From IMG/VR virus record IMGVR_UViG_3300027801_002517, positions 32,001 to 96,000 of that record: a DNA stretch of 64,000 nt; one strand, 5' to 3'. The translations under genes were made by a program, and so were the position numbers. Under the pieces are notes generated by a model. That model was not told where the DNA came from, searched no databases, and was given only the letters and a program-made list of their open reading frames with translations. Position 1 is the first letter of the stretch; each line of letters starts with the position of its first letter. The DNA is from a virus. Shown here in pieces: positions 50,507 through 62,899 of the stretch.

Positions 50507-50839
50507 TTACGCGGAAAAACTACTACCACAACCACAAGATTTGACGGCATTTGGATTATCGAACTGAAAGCCTCGCTTGTCAAGTCCTGAGTAGAAGTCA
50601 ACGGTTGTGCCATCCAGAAACAGATCGCTTTTCTTATCCACAACAACACCAACACCATACTGTTCCCGAAACACATCTGTTTTGACATCGTATCGATCAG
50701 TAAAGTCAAAGGCATACTGGAAGCCACTGCATCCACCACCGACCACACCGACACGGACATATTTTAGTTCCTCGCGGTTCTGATCTTCAATAATACTCTG
50801 GATTTCAATTGCAGCGGCTTCAGTAAGTTGAACTGTCAT
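50507..50839 (-). CDS. iscA: A-type Fe-S cluster carrier (IscA/HesB/ErpA)
   Basis: GGGCSGFQY, LDGTTVDF, NPNAVKSCGCGSSF. Confidence 0.92.
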   Translation of the reverse strand: MTVQLTEAAAIEIQSIIEDQNREELKYVRVGVVGGGCSGFQYAFDFTDRYDVKTDVFREQYGVGVVVDKKSDLFLDGTTVDFYSGLDKRGFQFDNPNAVKSCGCGSSFSA

Positions 50840-51404: not shown

Positions 51405-52694
51405 TTAAAATAATTCTTTTATACGCTTACCACCATTGACCATACCAAACGGTCTACCTTCAGCGGAATGAAGTTCTTGGTGAGTATTAATATTTAAAGA
51501 TGTTAAAACAGTTTCCGCTAAATCTTCTGGAGTATAACAACCTCCCACACACGACATTCCAGTTCTATCGGTTTCGCCCACGCACATTCCTGAATTTAAT
51601 CCACCACCACTCAGTAATAAACTAAATGCTGCCGGGAAATGTCCACGTCCCCCGGCACCTGCATCAATCTTTGGAGTCCTACCAAATTCCCCAGTGACTA
51701 ATACCAAGGTTTTATCTGACAACCCACGATCTGCAAGATCAGCAAACAAAGTAGAGATGGCAGAATCTAATGGTGGTAGTAATTCATCTTTAAGTAATCG
51801 GAAGTTCTCATCATGAGTATCCCAGTCAGTATGCTGAATAGTCACACACCTCACACCAGCTTCTACTAAACGGCGAGCCATTAAACAACTCTGACCTAGT
51901 GTACTTCTACCATACTGTTCTCTAATTTTAGCTGGTTCACGATCAATGTCAAATGCCGCCTTGGCTTCTGCTGATAGCATTAGAGTTTTGGCAGACTCTC
52001 TAAATGCATTAAAACTATTTGCTTTACGATTTGATCTAACTGAAACTTCCTTCGTTCCTTCAAACTTAGATAGCTGACGCCTCAGCTTTTCCCTAATTGC
52101 TATTCTATCATCGGGCAAATCAAACGGTGGCACAAGATCTGGTACAGAAAAACTTGGTGAATTAGGATCTGCCGCAATGACAAATGGAGCATATGATGAT
52201 CCTAGATATGCAGAACTACCACTCCTATGCATAGTAGGTAAACAAATATAAGGAGGCACAGATCCGATACCACCTTTTTCGTGAGCAATAATAGACCCAA
52301 AGGATGGATTGTGATTATTTGGCATCTGTTTAGACTGAAATGTTGGATTGGGCTTGTACCCAGTCAATATATAATGATCACCAGAACCATGATTAGAGTC
52401 ACTATGTGACATAGATCTAACTATTGAGAACTTGTCTTGCTGTTGTGCGAGCAAAGGAAGATGTTCTGTTATATGTATGTCTGGCACACATGTTGAAATT
52501 GGTGAAAATTCTCCACGATATTCAAGAGGAGCATTCGGTTTCATATCAAACATGTCGATACTACTGGGACCACCTTTTAGAAATACAATAATGAGAGACT
52601 TATCAGAAGCTTCAGCCACCTCAGAAGCATACGAACTCATAGGCAAAAACAATGAAGCCGCTCCACCCTTCAAAAATTTTCGTCTGGTAGTCAT
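51405..52694 (-). CDS. DUF1501-family protein with Tat signal
   Basis: RRKFLK, LKGGPS..DMFDMKP, YG..TLGQSCLMARRLVEAGV, WDTH, GEFGRTP, GRGHFP. Confidence 0.88.
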   Translation of the reverse strand: MTTRRKFLKGGAASLFLPMSSYASEVAEASDKSLIIVFLKGGPSSIDMFDMKPNAPLEYRGEFSPISTCVPDIHITEHLPLLAQQQDKFSIVRSMSHSDSNHGSGDHYILTGYKPNPTFQSKQMPNNHNPSFGSIIAHEKGGIGSVPPYICLPTMHRSGSSAYLGSSYAPFVIAADPNSPSFSVPDLVPPFDLPDDRIAIREKLRRQLSKFEGTKEVSVRSNRKANSFNAFRESAKTLMLSAEAKAAFDIDREPAKIREQYGRSTLGQSCLMARRLVEAGVRCVTIQHTDWDTHDENFRLLKDELLPPLDSAISTLFADLADRGLSDKTLVLVTGEFGRTPKIDAGAGGRGHFPAAFSLLLSGGGLNSGMCVGETDRTGMSCVGGCYTPEDLAETVLTSLNINTHQELHSAEGRPFGMVNGGKRIKELF

Positions 52695-56004: not shown

Positions 56005-56043
56005 AAAGATAAATATAGCCACCAATTTACAAAGGTGGCTATA
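56005..56043 (-). terminator. Intrinsic terminator
   Basis: TATAGCCACC (56014-56023) / GGTGGCTATA (56034-56043) stem followed by a T-rich tract on the - strand. Confidence 0.8.
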
Positions 56044-56050
56044 AATTCAA

Positions 56051-56296
56051 CTATCTAACAATTTTTACTTGTACATTTTTACCAACATTTACATAAACAA
56101 CATCTTTACCATCTTCCTTGGTAAATTCGAGCATATCAATTACTTCTCGTGCTTTATCAATATGAGACTGTTCAAGGTTAACCTTCTTCAATGCTTTCTT
56201 AATTAGCGTATCAGTAATATCAATATCAAATAGCCCACCATACTCACCACTTTCATTACCACTAATTACAACATCTTCTTGCTTAAAATCACTCAT
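56051..56296 (-). CDS. Hypothetical protein
   Basis: 81 aa, last gene of the membrane cassette. Confidence 0.55.
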   Translation of the reverse strand: MSDFKQEDVVISGNESGEYGGLFDIDITDTLIKKALKKVNLEQSHIDKAREVIDMLEFTKEDGKDVVYVNVGKNVQVKIVR

Positions 56297-56796
56297 TGAT
56301 TAAAACTCCAAGCTATAGCGTCTAAAACATTAACTAAACTAGTTCTTGCTTCTGGTGTAAAATCTGCATTTTCTTTACCAAGGGTCGCTATAATAATTTC
56401 ATCTATTGATTCACCAAGATTAGTATATTTATCTTTTAAGTCAAGTCCAGTAAAGTTTAATTGTCCTGCAATTGAATTAAAATTCTTAAATTGTCCTGTT
56501 GTTTGGATCAATCCCGGCTCCGTCTCGACTACATCTGACAATGTATAAAAATAATCTCTCAGTTGAGTTTTATCCTTTTTATTGATATCTAATAGTATCA
56601 GTTCTTCAACTAATGTCTTATTTGTTAATGATGGCTCAACAACTTCTGGTTTATTATCTACTGGCGTTATTTCTGTACTCTGTAATGCTTCAATAATCGG
56701 TTGACCAACAAGAGACACAAACACCAAAACTACAACAATAATAATCTTTGAGGTTTTATCGTTCCAAATTTCTAATATTTTATCACTATTTATCAT
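56293..56796 (-). CDS. Single-TM membrane-anchored protein
   Basis: IIIVVVLVFVSLVG hydrophobic segment. Confidence 0.65.
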   Translation of the reverse strand: MINSDKILEIWNDKTSKIIIVVVLVFVSLVGQPIIEALQSTEITPVDNKPEVVEPSLTNKTLVEELILLDINKKDKTQLRDYFYTLSDVVETEPGLIQTTGQFKNFNSIAGQLNFTGLDLKDKYTNLGESIDEIIIATLGKENADFTPEARTSLVNVLDAIAWSFNQ

Positions 56797-57134
56797 ACTA
56801 CAACGTCCTTTCTATCAATATCAACGTCAGATTCATCTTCTTTGGATATTTGATCCGTATGATCACCTCGATCAGAAATAATCAATAGTGGAAAAATTGC
56901 ATCTACTTTATTAGAGGCTTCAGTAAGTCCGGCATCTACACATTCTTTTTTAAAGGATGACCACGCAGATACAATACGAATAATATCTTCATCATAAAAG
57001 GTGGCTTGCGGTTTAGCGTTTGATCTTAGTTTTGGCTTTGTGACATCACCATTAAAAAATATGCTAATTAAAACGGCAGCAGCTACACCAAGTAAAACTA
57101 ATTGCCATACTTCAATTCCCAATTGATCTATCAT
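56793..57134 (-). CDS. Single-TM membrane protein
   Basis: VWQLVLLGVAAAVLISIFF. Confidence 0.65.
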   Translation of the reverse strand: MIDQLGIEVWQLVLLGVAAAVLISIFFNGDVTKPKLRSNAKPQATFYDEDIIRIVSAWSSFKKECVDAGLTEASNKVDAIFPLLIISDRGDHTDQISKEDESDVDIDRKDVVV

Positions 57135-57559
57135 TGTTCATCTCCTGTAAATAGTCCATGACGTTTATAAATACCAAGTATGTTCTCTATGTCTCCTGCA
57201 CTCATATTATTTGACTGATCTACTATAGACGAATAAAGATCTTTTTGTATCTTAGACTTTGAAGGCATAGTACTATGAGTCCGATAGTATGCAAAGTTTT
57301 TTCTAATGTCTCTTTTAATAAAGAAACGCTGTAAAAGACCCGGTTTTTGTATAGAGGACAAAGCTCTCTCCGCATTACTACTGTAGCATACATATATTAG
57401 TCTTATAACGCTGATTATGCAGTTGCAAATTGCAACAATGGTTATAATATCAAAAAAATAAATATCTTTACCATGCATCTTGTCTACTACTTCGTCGGCA
57501 ATTTTTCTTACATCAGGATGTAAATTATCTAAATTATCCCGTGTTACATACTTAGTCAT
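57131..57559 (-). CDS. Single-TM membrane protein
   Basis: FFDIITIVAICNCIISVIRLIYVC. Confidence 0.6.
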   Translation of the reverse strand: MTKYVTRDNLDNLHPDVRKIADEVVDKMHGKDIYFFDIITIVAICNCIISVIRLIYVCYSSNAERALSSIQKPGLLQRFFIKRDIRKNFAYYRTHSTMPSKSKIQKDLYSSIVDQSNNMSAGDIENILGIYKRHGLFTGDEQ

Positions 57560-58259
57560 TCGTATTATCCTTTATCTTTTTTAATAAGATATTTTTACCA
57601 ACATATCCTGTATAGTGAACTAATTTTTTAGTAGTATCTTTTTTTACCAGTATTGTTTGTGGAAGTGTTCTTACCCTGTATTTATTGAAAAGTTCTCTAT
57701 GATCTTTAGTATCCCAATCAAGCTTGGTAAGTTTGATATTACGATCTTTCAATAGTTCATACAATTCATTATTCTTTTTATTCCAAACATTTGCTTTCAT
57801 TTGCCTACATGGGCCACACCAAGTAGCCCCAAAGTAATACAAATGATAATCAACTTCTGCCTTCTTTTCAACTGTATTAGATATCAGTTGAATTTTTCCA
57901 TCGACCCCTGTGGTTGGGGGAGTACAAGCTTGCCCGCTACGACATTGACAATTACCTCCACACTTACCAGTACAAGTATCTTTTGTGCATCCAGTTTCTT
58001 CATTCTTCCCATGATGAGGACATTTAGTTTCATGTCCATCGCCTTGTTTGATTATACCAGTACCTTTACAGATACATTTATCTGCATCTGGATGTGGACC
58101 TTCTGGTTCTGGTATAGGTTTTGGTGTAGGCTTCGGTGTATTATCTACACCATCAGTCACTAAAACCTTAGCAATATCTACTGATATTTTAGGTCTATAA
58201 TTCGTCTCTGTACCTAATACCATAACAATCATTGTCGCGGCAAGCAATCCAAACTTCAT
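57552..58259 (-). CDS. Exported thioredoxin-domain protein with Pro linker and Cys-rich domain
   Basis: Hydrophobic N-terminus, PKPTPKPIPEP, CICKGTG..CP and CTKDTCTGKCGGNCQC, FGATWCGPC, cis-Pro TLP. Confidence 0.8.
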   Translation of the reverse strand: MKFGLLAATMIVMVLGTETNYRPKISVDIAKVLVTDGVDNTPKPTPKPIPEPEGPHPDADKCICKGTGIIKQGDGHETKCPHHGKNEETGCTKDTCTGKCGGNCQCRSGQACTPPTTGVDGKIQLISNTVEKKAEVDYHLYYFGATWCGPCRQMKANVWNKKNNELYELLKDRNIKLTKLDWDTKDHRELFNKYRVRTLPQTILVKKDTTKKLVHYTGYVGKNILLKKIKDNTND

Positions 58260-58268
58260 TTCTTTCTC

Positions 58269-59198
58269 CTATAGAAAATCTATCATACCGTAATCTGGTA
58301 ACTCTCTAGCAGGAAAACCCTGTACGTCACTAAATACCCAAGAACCACGACCAGCCAACATAGCTCGTGCATCGCTTTCACGAATCCAAAAACTACCATC
58401 TGGTTGTCCATGTGTCTTAGGACCAGAATTCCATCGTCCCCAGCTATTTTGCACTAAGAACAATGTTTCTCTATGTACTTTTCTAGTGTCGTCGCAAGCA
58501 ATCCAAGCCATAGCATGGCTCCATCCTTTACCACGTTTAGCAATTCCATTCACATCTCTTCTTGAGCTAAAACCATAACCACTACAAACAGATATACCAT
58601 ACCCATTAGCTAAAGCATCTCTTGCTTCTTCTATTGTTGTAACCATAGAGACGGTTTTAACTCGATGCTTATTTGCTTCATCGACATATATCTGCATGGG
58701 AATTAAGTGATTTGCACCAATTTTAGAATTATATACAGATAAATCTATTGATCCATAATCTTTTCTAAGGAGAATACCACCTTTTTGGTGTGCATATCTT
58801 GCGGCAATTGAACAAGACATTCCTTGACGTTTATGTCCACGAGATTGATATATGCCTTCTGTAGCACTTCTGGTCAAAAAACTCTCTGGTTCTTTTTTTA
58901 CGTCAATCTCAACAGCCCGTGTGAGATCAATTGCATTTCTTGTAGAATGAGAAACACAATCACCAGTAGTTTGACGCTCCGATGGACCAAACCCTTTATC
59001 GAATTTCAGCAAAGACTTATAAGGTAGTGAGAGCTTCCCTTCTCCACTACCATATAAACTATATGCCGCTGCACCAAATAAAGGGGTTTTTAACTTACCT
59101 AAAAGATCAGCAACATCTTCGTCATCACATATTGTTCCAACGAATCCGTCCTGATAGGTTTTTAGGGTTTTGCGTGGTGTGGTAAAATCTTCAGTCAT
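58269..59198 (-). CDS. Papain-like (C1/CA clan) cysteine peptidase
   Basis: QTTGDCVSH (oxyanion Gln + Cys), WSHAM (His), QNSWG (Asn), GSFWI. Confidence 0.85.
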   Translation of the reverse strand: MTEDFTTPRKTLKTYQDGFVGTICDDEDVADLLGKLKTPLFGAAAYSLYGSGEGKLSLPYKSLLKFDKGFGPSERQTTGDCVSHSTRNAIDLTRAVEIDVKKEPESFLTRSATEGIYQSRGHKRQGMSCSIAARYAHQKGGILLRKDYGSIDLSVYNSKIGANHLIPMQIYVDEANKHRVKTVSMVTTIEEARDALANGYGISVCSGYGFSSRRDVNGIAKRGKGWSHAMAWIACDDTRKVHRETLFLVQNSWGRWNSGPKTHGQPDGSFWIRESDARAMLAGRGSWVFSDVQGFPARELPDYGMIDFL

Positions 59199-59199
59199 A

Positions 59200-59406
59200 T
59201 TACTTCGTATTATCTCTAATCCAAGTAATTAGTGACTGTAGACCAACAGTGACCACAGGTACTATTAGTGGACCAAAAGCACCAAGATCGATATTAATCA
59301 AATTCTCGGACACAAAGGCTAATCCAGCAGCCGCACCTACAAGTAAACCTGTTTTCAATACTAAAATAACTTCAGCACCATTTAACTTAAAACTTTCAGA
59401 ACCCAT
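59200..59406 (-). CDS. Holin-like two-TM protein
   Basis: 68 aa, two hydrophobic helices, short charged C-terminus, directly upstream of the peptidase. Confidence 0.55.
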   Translation of the reverse strand: MGSESFKLNGAEVILVLKTGLLVGAAAGLAFVSENLINIDLGAFGPLIVPVVTVGLQSLITWIRDNTK

Positions 59407-59419
59407 AATTAGACCTTTC

Positions 59420-59719
59420 TTAATTTAGTAAAACAACAACCTTGTCACTAAGTGACTTTAAATCTTCTCTAGCTTGTTCATGACCCTCCATTAATCCCTC
59501 TAATCTACCGACTTTCTCACTCATTGAGACCGCCCACATGTCACGGTCAACATGTCTATCTTCACATTCTTGTAATTTTTTACTGACTCTTTTTTCAGTA
59601 CTCACCATTTGCCGGTGCATTGATTTCCATAACACGGTTATAGCAGCAGCTAAACCACCAATAATTGGTGTACAAAGTTTTAAAATGAATTCGATATTTA
59701 ACTGAAAATCAGAAGACAT
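59420..59719 (-). CDS. TM + coiled-coil protein
   Basis: Start MSSDF after GGAG; IIGGLAAAITVLW then a coiled coil. Confidence 0.6.
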   Translation of the reverse strand: MSSDFQLNIEFILKLCTPIIGGLAAAITVLWKSMHRQMVSTEKRVSKKLQECEDRHVDRDMWAVSMSEKVGRLEGLMEGHEQAREDLKSLSDKVVVLLN

Positions 59720-59750
59720 AAAAACTCCAATCGTCAAACAGTCATATGCA

Positions 59751-59783
59751 ATAAAAAGCCTCACCCCCATATGAGGATGAGGC
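59751..59783 (-). terminator. Intrinsic terminator
   Basis: On the - strand GCCTCATCCTC-ATAT-GGGGGTGAGGC-TTTTTAT: 11-bp stem with two G-U pairs. Confidence 0.88.
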
Positions 59784-59813
59784 TGCTTAATCCTTTAAGC
59801 TACAAGAATCCTA

Positions 59814-60467
59814 TCAGGATTCAAATGTATCTTTAGCCTTATATTCATCTGTTGTAGGTGCCGCCAAACCACCGAAGTGGTATGTAAGTTCACCCGGAAC
59901 AGATCTGGATGTAGAAGCAGCATTATCAATTGCCGCGTGACCACCCGTTCCAGAAGGAGCTACATAATTTACAACAGTACCAGCACCAGCACCCTTGGTA
60001 AAGTTAGGTGTAATTTGAGTGCTTGGTACAGCATAGATATCGAATGTACCACCACCCGTACCAAGTTGTCGAGTAGTTATCAGTTCATGAACACCGTCAC
60101 GAACAACACCCTTCCAGTCTGCTGCCGTCGTATCGAGTGCGGTAGTAGCTACATTAGATAATGTACTTGTAACTCCTCCACCTCTCATTATCCACTGAGT
60201 AGCAGTAGATTCATAAGCTAATGTACCACCACTAAGTGCTTTAGCAACACCTACTCTATCAGTTGTTGCAGCACCAGTACCGTCATTAGCTACTACTTTA
60301 GAACCCACATCTCTTAAATCATCAACAGTACCAACGATTGTTACTGCATTACTAATTGGACCCGTGGTAGTATCAGCATTACCAGCCTGAAAAATAGAAC
60401 CACCATCTTTAACTTCACCAGTGCCAACTGCGACATCACCAGCACCCGAGGGTCTTACTGTAGACAT
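59814..60467 (-). CDS. Gly/Ala/Thr-rich putative virion protein
   Basis: 217 aa, AAGGAG SD, own promoter and terminator. Confidence 0.55.
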   Translation of the reverse strand: MSTVRPSGAGDVAVGTGEVKDGGSIFQAGNADTTTGPISNAVTIVGTVDDLRDVGSKVVANDGTGAATTDRVGVAKALSGGTLAYESTATQWIMRGGGVTSTLSNVATTALDTTAADWKGVVRDGVHELITTRQLGTGGGTFDIYAVPSTQITPNFTKGAGAGTVVNYVAPSGTGGHAAIDNAASTSRSVPGELTYHFGGLAAPTTDEYKAKDTFES

Positions 60468-61476: not shown

Positions 61477-61863
61477 TCATGGTAACATTTCAGAAGGATT
61501 TATGTATGGAGTACTATCTGCCTCCTTTCTATCTGTAAGCTCTTGAGCTTCATTTGTTTTGAGATCTATGTATAATTGTATAAAATCATCGTGTAACTGT
61601 TTTAGATCTTGATCTAACAAATTACTTTGAATTAATTCTAAAGTATCCATTTGACCACGAAAAGAACTAACATAATTAATCAATGTGGCTAATTCAACAG
61701 CTTCAAATGGTCTATTTGAATTTTCTAAATCAATAAATAAAGTACCTTGTGTAGTCAGTAGAAAATTAATATTAATTAGAGGTTTACCGTCTTCTGTATT
61801 CTCTTCTATTTGTTCTTCAGACTTTGTGTTATAATTAAAATAATTTTTTATAAATTTAAACAT
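61477..61863 (-). CDS. Hypothetical protein
   Basis: 128 aa ORF. Confidence 0.5.
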   Translation of the reverse strand: MFKFIKNYFNYNTKSEEQIEENTEDGKPLININFLLTTQGTLFIDLENSNRPFEAVELATLINYVSSFRGQMDTLELIQSNLLDQDLKQLHDDFIQLYIDLKTNEAQELTDRKEADSTPYINPSEMLP

Positions 61864-62899
61864 ACTTTATAATTTCTTGTGTTGTGTGTGACCAAGTGAA
61901 TTTTTTAGAAGTTTCTATACCCGTTTGATTAAATGTGCGATGATCAGACAACGCAAAATCTTGCATGTATTTAGATAATATCTGTATGGTTGAATCTTCT
62001 ATCTTACCCCAATTACCTTGACCAAAGAACCATTTATCATCAAATGCAGGCTCCATACTACTTATCGGGATTAAATCAGAGTTTTCTTTAGTACAAAATT
62101 CAGTATGAGCTGAATAATCTGTAGTTATAATATGCTTTCCACATGCCATCAACTCCAATACCTCTAAATTCCATCCTTCTGCCCTAGATGGAAAGACTCC
62201 ACAATCCACTTCAGCCATAATATTATACACATCTACCTGCGTATTAACCCTTGGTATAAGTTTAACATTAGGGCGATCATATAGATTTCTCCAATAATTC
62301 GCCTCATTAAGAGAATTAAAAGGATTCTCACACATCATCCATAATTCAACATTATCTTGATCTATCATATCCCAAGCTTTGATTAGGATATCATGACCCT
62401 TACGAACTTCCCATTTACCACAGTTAAAGAAGATAGTTTTACTTCTATACTGATCTACTTTGGTTGGGACAAATATATCTAAATCTACACCAAGTGGAGC
62501 TACACTGACTGGCACAGTGATACCATTCTGCTCCACAATTTCTTTAGCCCACTCTGAACATACTATAAGATGATCAACTGAATTTAATTCATTAACTTCT
62601 TGATCTGTAAATGTATCCAACTCAAAAATTGGGAATCCAAATGTTTTACCAGTGAGAGCTTCAGGTATTCTCATATCATGCTGGTGCCAGATCTTTAAGA
62701 CGGGAGCATCCTCAAAACCTGATTTATTCATATTGTTAGCAAGTTTTTTACATACCTCAAAATCCCCAAGATTACTACACTGAATTTCTCCAATAGGCCA
62801 CAATGCTACATCAGCAATTTTATTAAATTCTTTTACAATATTTAATGAAGCAATGCCGTATCCTAATTGATTGATAGGCCCGATGATATTTATCTTCAT
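61856..62899 (-). CDS. GT4 glycosyltransferase outside the glycan island
   Basis: LGVD, GKWEVRKG, VFPSRAEGWNLEVLELMACG. Confidence 0.85.
   Translation of the reverse strand: MKINIIGPINQLGYGIASLNIVKEFNKIADVALWPIGEIQCSNLGDFEVCKKLANNMNKSGFEDAPVLKIWHQHDMRIPEALTGKTFGFPIFELDTFTDQEVNELNSVDHLIVCSEWAKEIVEQNGITVPVSVAPLGVDLDIFVPTKVDQYRSKTIFFNCGKWEVRKGHDILIKAWDMIDQDNVELWMMCENPFNSLNEANYWRNLYDRPNVKLIPRVNTQVDVYNIMAEVDCGVFPSRAEGWNLEVLELMACGKHIITTDYSAHTEFCTKENSDLIPISSMEPAFDDKWFFGQGNWGKIEDSTIQILSKYMQDFALSDHRTFNQTGIETSKKFTWSHTTQEIIKYV

Follow-up and report, generated by a model that had tools for sequence, protein, structure and literature searches.

In the prevailing view, phages lyse their hosts with enzymes from a few families of peptidoglycan hydrolases, and the abundant marine phage group described here shows none of them. 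We analysed a block of eight genes (g1 to g8) in a 64,000-nucleotide stretch of viral DNA, hereafter the window, which comprises bases 32,001-96,000 of the 157,369-bp IMG/VR record IMGVR_UViG_3300027801_002517 (CheckV completeness estimate 94%) and has a GC content of about 35%. The block resembles lysis cassettes of the lambda S-R-Rz/Rz1 type in that a small gene encoding two transmembrane (TM) helices stands 1-18 nt before the gene of a signal-less hydrolase, with membrane-anchored genes following, and in that the block lies upstream of the terminase in one relative (locus L092). It differs from them in that the enzyme has a predicted C1 papain fold and is not a muramidase, transglycosylase, amidase or M15/M23 peptidase, and in that the module has an apparently exported thioredoxin and a TM-anchored helical partner, with no recognisable lipoprotein spanin in the window.

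Signal-anchor-release (SAR) endolysins such as P1 Lyz offer a second comparison. About 10% of the relatives of the peptidase, g3, have an N-terminal anchor that should hold them at the membrane and would place the enzyme in the periplasm, and catalytic-cysteine chemistry in an oxidising compartment is central to both. Xu et al. are said to have described in 2005 that the redox switch of P1 Lyz is an intramolecular disulfide isomerisation within the lysozyme; here, by contrast, a separate gene for a WCGPC thioredoxin lies beside the cysteine protease, and g3 itself lacks any hydrophobic segment and hence a SAR domain. Lysins of the papain superfamily include NlpC/P60 enzymes (C40, for example the N4 domain of D29 LysA) and PeiW/PeiP (PMC10318531; bioRxiv 10.1101/2025.01.22.634383), and cysteine amidase lysins require reducing conditions (PMC8586454). 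Like these enzymes, which cleave peptides of the cell wall, g3 is predicted from its fold to use Cys-His catalysis on a papain-like core; unlike them, it has no hidden Markov model (HMM) match to CHAP or NlpC/P60 and has the full two-lobe C1A fold (about 230 aligned residues, Z 18-22) rather than a minimal α/β core. Its best structural matches are two bacterial C1A enzymes, namely xylellain of Xylella fastidiosa (PDB 3OIS), which has a short N-terminal pro-region, and Cwp84 (PDB 4CI7), which acts on a cell-surface protein, but both are only 19-20% identical to g3, are not phage lysis enzymes and have no thioredoxin or g7-type partner. A viral papain-family protease that breaks down host structures at the end of infection is known in baculovirus V-cath, which acts together with a chitinase; that system, however, belongs to an insect virus, works at the level of tissue and uses another export route, so that any evolutionary link is the shared fold only. 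We found no description in the literature of a C1 peptidase and a thioredoxin as a lysis pair.

We read the block as a holin-dependent lysis module in which a C1 papain-family peptidase is the lytic enzyme, a reading to which we give a probability of about 0.55; lysis with g2 as the holin is, on the same odds, the most economical account of the locus. Most likely the block is a way for the phage to exit its host that has been undescribed so far. An undescribed lysis system had been proposed in the initial annotation, made from the DNA letters alone, and the conserved module, the extracytoplasmic protease family, its ties to a thioredoxin and to membrane-anchored partners, the holin-like partner and the lack of a detectable endolysin support that proposal in part; the planctomycete link that went with it holds for distant relatives only. 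Four genes carry the argument:

59200..59406, minus strand: g2, 68 aa, two TM helices (about 13-31 and about 42-60), holin candidate whose stop codon falls 1 nt ahead of g3
58269..59198, minus strand: g3, 309-aa C1/papain-fold cysteine peptidase without a signal peptide (Q76, C81, H228, N251)
57552..58259, minus strand: g4, 235 aa; signal-like N-terminus, Pro-rich stalk, Cys-rich motif, thioredoxin domain (WCGPC)
56293..56796, minus strand: g7, 167 aa, with an N-terminal TM helix and a helical-bundle domain

An AlphaFold2 model of g3, built with 66 relatives, reaches a mean confidence (pLDDT) of 94 and aligns in VIA comparisons with xylellain at Z 22.1 (231 residues, 2.7 Å), with pro-cathepsins and papain at Z 17.6-20, and with the C. 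difficile S-layer protease Cwp84 at Z 18.2. Foldseek returned 251 PDB matches at E ≤ 0.001, with C1 enzymes filling the top (E 5e-10). In an alignment of 66 relatives (30-77% identity), C81 and H228 are invariant, and Q76 and the N251-S252-W253 stretch are conserved in at least 90%; the earlier call of a signal-less papain-fold peptidase with Gln, Cys, His and Asn in place is thus borne out. Searches by sequence were silent: g3 has no Pfam match at E ≤ 0.1, PF00112 and PF03051 included, and no PHROG match, and phmmer against PDB sequences gave nothing meaningful, while PF00112 is found on 12% of the members of a related ESM Atlas cluster. Since g3 matches C1 by structure but not through Pfam, it appears to belong to a divergent subfamily recognised by structure, and the model identifies it as a divergent C1A papain-family enzyme with intact catalytic residues. 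Some of its fold neighbours in BFVD are C1-like domains of phage proteins that are known by name alone (peptidoglycan-binding, muramidase, endolysin, Lysin A).

Mature plant enzymes align with the model from residue 51-53 and pro-enzymes from residue 7, so that residues 1-50 correspond in position to the final part of a pro-segment. The C-terminal tail of g3 (LPDYG-x-I-D, window 58269-58310) resembles Y-x-x-G-[FL]-x-G-x-x-x-D, a conserved N-terminal motif of this pro-like segment (59100-59160), a likeness in the sequence that could mark a docking or autoprocessing motif. The family is large: clustering at 90% leaves 1,672 relatives, and clustering at 50% leaves 1,340 clusters; related loci were sought both with the single protein and with an 11-row alignment as query. 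Nearly all relatives of 540-1,050 aa (for example P0122, P0128, P0144 and P0271-P0381) contain Intein_splicing, LAGLIDADG or Hint domains, and the insertions, of which some relatives have two or three, split the alignment at about 79/80 and 230/231, adjoining Cys81 and His228.

Evidence for where the family acts comes from the N-termini of 150 listed representatives. Twin-arginine (Tat) signals are present in five (P0136, P0232, P0253, P0266 and P0269), a Sec-like anchor in one (P0270) and a lipobox in another (P0247), and about 14 have a short basic N-terminus and a TM helix, then a g7-like domain of about 150-200 aa, then the peptidase; by the positive-inside rule, the bulk of these anchored fusions should be periplasmic. 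Altogether, an export signal or N-terminal membrane anchor occurs in about 14% of the listed relatives, which suggests that the peptidase family acts outside the cytoplasm. The contigs of P0253, P0232 and P0270 (1.4-2.7 kb) hold no useful gene context.

The same fusions tie the neighbouring genes to the protease. The family of standalone g7 proteins is homologous to the N-terminal domain of the fused peptidases (hhalign 99.4%, E 3.8e-21), the C-terminus of P0171 (residues 595-617) is a copy of the Cys-rich motif of g4, and at locus L084 a g7-like N-terminus is apparently joined to a thioredoxin domain. At locus L089, the Cys-rich motif forms a standalone 83-aa protein with a signal, adjoining the peptidase (L089:2120-2371). 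We take these g7, Cys-rich and thioredoxin fusions to link g3, g4 and g7 and to point to a shared compartment outside the cytoplasm. The model of g7 gave generic helical-bundle matches only (Foldseek E > 0.4, VIA Z ≤ 7.1), and a predicted complex of g3 with the soluble domain of g7 scored 0.00, a value that we use as evidence neither way.

For g4, the thioredoxin with WCGPC that had been assigned as the fourth gene is confirmed by Pfam (Thioredoxin 2.4e-11, Thioredoxin_2 1.3e-10, residues 134-230, with C148/C151 as the WCGPC cysteines). Its signal-like N-terminal stretch consists of one Lys and then a hydrophobic core of about 14 residues, and its Cys-rich motif has nine Cys within residues 62-112. 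A lipobox is present in the homologue at L092 and a hydrophobic N-terminal segment in others, with neither in that of locus L095 as called. The small, apparently exported Cys-rich module (CxC/CxxC-K-x-G ... GDGH-x-T-x-C; g4 residues about 60-106, window 57950-58080) occurs fused to thioredoxin, fused to the C-terminus of the peptidase or alone, and resembles a DnaJ-type zinc knuckle.

The surroundings of the protease were compared across 80 IMG/VR loci with 70-94% peptidase identity. By family HMMs, every one of them has exactly one of two small two-TM genes, g2 or h58 (57-60 aa), and never both or neither. Of these loci, 43 have a g2 homologue, which in every case ends 1-18 nt ahead of the peptidase gene; h58 is found in the other 37, where it lies 1.3-2.2 kb downstream of the peptidase. 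The two families have no homology detectable by hhalign (3.8%), and when the h58 HMM is run against the genome, g2 ranks first at E 1.6. Such a swap of unrelated small two-TM genes at a fixed module is the pattern that would be expected of holins. Members of h58 match only holin PHROGs (9987, 297 and 4712), and these weakly (E 0.003-0.09), and in the ESM Atlas clusters that bear the automatic name holin adjoin g2 (0.94) and h58 (0.96), the nearest clusters with a Pfam assignment being Phage_r1t_holin (0.87 for g2) and Phage_holin_1; we treat the Atlas neighbours as leads only. In the alignment of its family, g2 has a Gly/Ala-rich first TM helix and a short, charged, K/D/E-rich C-terminal tail. 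Its earlier description as holin-like therefore stands on the two helices, the charged tail and the adjacency to the peptidase, and fails on membership of a described holin HMM family.

Two gene orders account for the 80 loci. In the 43 loci with g2, a sigma-factor gene is followed by u217 (the gene upstream of the block), in some cases a TM/PAS protein, g2, the peptidase, the thioredoxin, g5, g6, g7, g8 and nrdAB. In the 37 loci with h58, the order begins with a GT4 glycosyltransferase, the peptidase, a signal/thioredoxin protein, a g5-like gene, h58, g6 and a g7-like gene, and continues later with sigma, a u217-like gene, a TM/coiled-coil gene and nrdAB. The core persists in distant phages: a g7-like gene precedes the peptidase at L104 and L114, a Cys-rich protein is added at L089, and L092-94 have a g7-like gene, a Tat-peptidase and a lipoprotein thioredoxin (WCGPC), with a Tat-peptidase and thioredoxin at L095, so that peptidase-thioredoxin adjacency recurs in unrelated phage contigs (L092-94 and L095). 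The conserved core thus appears to be g7, the protease and an exported Cys-rich or thioredoxin protein, plus one holin-like gene. The synteny check proposed at the outset accordingly succeeds, with the block conserved in the 80 loci and its core beyond them, and this conservation supports a functional module rather than a chance cluster.

Locus L092 has, in order, the g7-like gene, the Tat-peptidase, the thioredoxin, a 116-aa gene, a 71-aa lipoprotein-like gene, a 108-aa gene, the terminase large subunit (PHROG 2, 3e-19) and portal. Its 71-aa gene has a weak match to an Rz-like spanin (E 0.04). The position just before the terminase is the one in which the lysis cassette of lambdoid phages sits.

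No muramidase, amidase, M15 or M23 enzyme had been recognised in the window, and this now holds across the 157-kb genome. A six-frame search of the 94%-complete genome with 13 endolysin Pfam families (Phage_lysozyme, Amidase_2, Amidase_3, SLT, GH108, GH19, GH25, M15_3, M15_4, M23, NlpC/P60, CHAP and Hydrolase_2) gave no match at E ≤ 0.1, while control genomes gave matches. Six of the 13 families were likewise absent from nine related phage records, which cover both gene arrangements and include three rated 100% complete, two of these with terminal repeats. Pfam scans of individual open reading frames (ORFs) found no endolysin family either; the four giant ORFs and those of the glycan operon were covered by the six-frame family searches only. 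The proposed check for a canonical endolysin elsewhere thus detected none in the genome or in the complete relatives. A role for g3 as a prohead (virion maturation) protease was considered and rejected as unlikely, because the head module has a separate ClpP-type prohead protease.

From these parts a sequence of events can be proposed. During infection, g4 would be exported, and g7, g6 and g5 would be inner-membrane proteins with most of their mass on the periplasmic side, while the signal-less g3 would accumulate in the cytoplasm folded and reduced, perhaps restrained by the short pro-like segment at its N-terminus. At the end of infection, the two-TM protein g2 would permeabilise the membrane, and g3 would enter the periplasm and work beside g7. 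There, the WCGPC thioredoxin might keep or make Cys81 reduced in an oxidising environment, or might reduce the target, and g3 would cut either peptidoglycan stems or cross-links or a structural envelope protein, leading to lysis of the cell. We infer four parts of this mechanism, namely that g2 forms the hole, what g3 cuts, which task the thioredoxin has and when the genes are expressed. By analogy with other papain-superfamily lysins, the substrate of g3 could be peptidoglycan peptides rather than protein.

Several observations weigh against holin-dependent lysis by g3. The known papain-superfamily lysins are CHAP, NlpC/P60, Amidase_5 and Pei, and C1 is not among the established lysin families (PMC10318531). 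Neither g3 nor the fused relatives that were scanned have a cell-wall-binding domain, and g2 and its relatives match no curated holin HMM in Pfam or PHROG. None of g1 to g8 has a lipobox-like motif, and a spanin pair is unrecognisable in the window; g6 and g7 are type II-like, with no lipoprotein partner seen. To our knowledge, no C1-family enzyme cuts peptidoglycan. The peptidase is conserved at 70-77% identity where its neighbours are at 27-53% and ribonucleotide reductase (RNR) at about 80%, which is unusual for a lysin, and its gene is heavily invaded by inteins. Some bacterial homologues (Balneolaceae, Mucilaginibacter) are signal-less and in contexts that look non-phage. The cassette lies amid replication and nucleotide-metabolism genes, between a sigma-factor gene and nrdAB, and no late-promoter motif was found between T1, the terminator-like hairpin ahead of the block, and g1, so that late expression would need read-through of T1. 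Finally, endolysin families that go undetected by HMM are not thereby proved absent.

Some of these points would fit a periplasmic module for envelope remodelling or superinfection exclusion, in which a protease kept active by the thioredoxin and held by g7 destroys a receptor, a host protein or incoming ejection proteins, with lysis then done by an unrecognised enzyme elsewhere. The export signals and membrane-tethered forms among the relatives, the high conservation of the protease and the placement of the block in the early/middle replication region without a late-promoter motif of its own are all in keeping with this, and the tethered or Tat-exported forms would face the periplasm long before lysis. 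Most members of the family, g3 included, are nevertheless signal-less and would need a membrane lesion to exit; moreover, the rule of one holin-like gene out of two and the terminase-adjacent position at L092 fit lysis better, and the alternative endolysin was not found in complete genomes. On balance we consider this explanation unlikely.

It is quite unlikely, in our view, that lysis proceeds without any peptidoglycan hydrolase, the reductase opening disulfide cross-links and the protease digesting a protein layer or the protein tethers by which the host envelope is kept together. Were it true, the chemistry would be specific to hosts with protein-rich envelopes, such as Planctomycetota, which make up 15 of the 32 genome loci of the family. 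The locus makes it testable whether proteolysis of envelope proteins can lyse bacteria in place of cutting murein glycan or peptide bonds.

A cytoplasmic role for g3, either as a processing protease that works alongside the GT4 enzyme on a glycoprotein or a giant virion protein of the phage or as a cleaver of host factors, seems very unlikely. In that case, the surrounding genes for membrane proteins would be small and unrelated, retained through synteny. The lack of a signal in g3 agrees with it, as do conservation at the level of an enzyme, frequent inteins, the GT4 gene directly upstream of and overlapping the g3 homologue in several clades, and the presence in this phage of a glycan operon of about 24 kb and a 5,382-aa virion protein. 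Against this, relatives with Tat signals, lipoprotein signals or TM anchors exist, elsewhere g7 and the exported Cys-rich motif form a single polypeptide with the protease, and the adjacency to thioredoxin and g7 persists in phages that lack GT4, whose own adjacency is confined to one broad phage group. Phage thioredoxins and glutaredoxins often serve RNR (as T4 nrdC does) and g4 lies about 1.6 kb upstream of nrdA, but that g4 simply feeds the adjacent RNR and the rest are unrelated accessory genes with no common function is highly improbable given its signal-like N-terminal segment and Cys-rich stalk, a homologue at L092 that has a lipoprotein signal and adjoins the terminase rather than RNR, and the fusions and co-occurrence that bind g3, g4 and g7.

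If holin-dependent lysis by the g3 peptidase is confirmed, it would bring a new class of enzymes among the endolysins and be a second case, following that of the P1 SAR lysozyme, in which redox chemistry controls lysis. It would further provide a marker gene for a large group of uncultured phages and a new class of reagents, thiol-dependent lysins with a built-in reductase.

The remaining features of the block and its surroundings are as follows:

61856..62899, minus strand: GT4-type glycosyltransferase; in other clades directly upstream of and overlapping the protease
59814..60467, minus strand: u217, Gly/Thr/Ala-rich, 217 aa, strong ribosome-binding site; motif GTGTATAAT at 60556-60548
59757..59784, minus strand: T1, terminator-like hairpin after u217, 12-bp stem and U-run; minimum free energy (MFE) -23.7 kcal/mol, z -5.6
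59420..59719, minus strand: g1, 99 aa, N-terminal TM helix and charged coiled-coil-like tail (from hydropathy; GGAG)
57131..57559, minus strand: g5, 142 aa, one central TM helix (38-56), weakly conserved at this position
56793..57134, minus strand: g6, 113 aa, N-terminal TM helix and acidic tail, in both phage clades
56051..56296, minus strand: g8, 81 aa, soluble, acidic, no TM helix
about 56014..56043, minus strand: T2, terminator-like hairpin just before nrdA, 10-bp stem and U-rich tail; MFE -16.9, z -5.2

The initial annotation had described eight tightly packed genes between two terminators, which agrees with what we find: eight ORFs lie on the minus strand between 59,770 and 56,051, separated by -8 to +13 nt, and both hairpins are strong. 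Hydropathy likewise gives one TM helix each in g5, g6 and g7 and none in g8, matching the three single-TM proteins and one small protein reported before. The reading of g1 as a TM/coiled-coil gene needs some correction. One TM helix and a charged tail are present, but T1 overlaps the long start (59770) and a GGAG lies 7 nt before the ATG at 59719, so g1 probably starts at 59719 and has 99 aa; moreover, g1 and its longer homologues always follow a u217 homologue, which places g1 with u217 and not with the peptidase core. Sister phages have at the g1 position either a protein of about 192 aa with a TM helix, a coiled coil and a PAS-like part, or a TM and coiled-coil protein of about 105 aa. In the proteins of about 192 aa (for example L010:7730-8305, L013:8203-8787 and L090:12515-13192), the coiled coil has a conserved PNGGxS(M/L)KD, and the L090 protein has a weak PAS_9 match; g1 is here cut to 99 aa, without the PAS part. 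Because it stands directly upstream of the holin-like gene, the PAS-like protein may be a sensor for lysis timing or an antiholin.

Upstream of the block, GTGTATAAT lies 89 nt before the u217 start, and the same motif is found 19-68 nt upstream of seven structural genes, making u217 plausibly a late gene; the late-type gene that had been placed upstream of the block is thus a reasonable call. The form GTGTATAA(T/A) precedes seven plus-strand structural genes (for example at window 9538 and at genome 4731, 131144, 133196, 136290 and 152571) and is a candidate for a late promoter, which one of two sigma-like proteins of the phage may recognise. u217 lies outside the protease module, but late read-through transcription probably originates from it. 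It stands by itself among early/middle genes, is free of Cys, matches no Pfam or PHROG family and is conserved in both clades at 26-50% identity; it may be an abundant late protein.

At the scale of the genome, the head, tail and giant virion genes are on the plus strand (terminase, ClpP-type prohead protease, cement protein and the 5,382-aa ORF), and the minus strand begins with small early genes, continues with genes for replication and nucleotide metabolism (DnaE, DnaB, SSB, RecA, ThyX, dUTPase, dCMP deaminase and RNR, among others) and leads into the long glycan operon. A GT4 glycosyltransferase gene is directly upstream of the protease in many relatives. Against 50,697 records of cultured phages, tblastn with g3 and megablast with the region gave zero matches, and the capsid and terminase match only distant Bacillus and Microcystis phages, so a close cultured relative appears to be absent. 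The sequencing runs that contain the stretch are marine or seawater metagenomes only, and none of those listed is an RNA run.

The planctomycete link suggested earlier holds for distant relatives, which are concentrated in Planctomycetota, and is not upheld by close ones, whose labels are inconsistent. With one genome taken per species, the Planctomycetota among the genome loci with a relative are metagenome-assembled genomes (MAGs) or genomes at 29-50% identity, and the remaining loci are from Bacteroidota, Myxococcales and Gammaproteobacteria. Close matches (63-75%) come from MAGs with the labels SAR202, Flavobacteriales, Dehalococcoidia and Promethearchaeota and look like phage contigs that ended up in these bins by chance. 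In a sampling by phylum, relatives were present in five of 301 Planctomycetota and two of 301 Bacteroidota genomes, seeds included, which puts the gene in about 1% of planctomycete genomes; these matches are too sparse for a host to be named from them. The phage also has a DUF1501 protein (window 51405-52694, Pfam 1.5e-92), present in up to three tandem copies in sister phages (L061, L066 and L071); DUF1501 is a family common in Planctomycetota, and this unusual auxiliary gene is a possible clue to the host.

Three minor observations concern other early and metabolic genes. An IscA/HesB-type Fe-S assembly protein (window 50507-50839, Fe-S_biosyn 1.8e-16) adjoins the dUTPase/dCTP-deaminase and RNR genes. 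In five related loci (L038, L039, L042, L044 and L045), nrdA matches in two pieces about 2.2 kb apart, a pattern that would fit an intein or another insertion within the large subunit of RNR. Lastly, outside the window, the intergenic DNA upstream of two early genes has tRNA-like sequence, at genome positions 102,244-102,605 and 115,190-115,480, with the T-arm-like stretches GGTTCGAATCC and GGGTTCAAATCCC.

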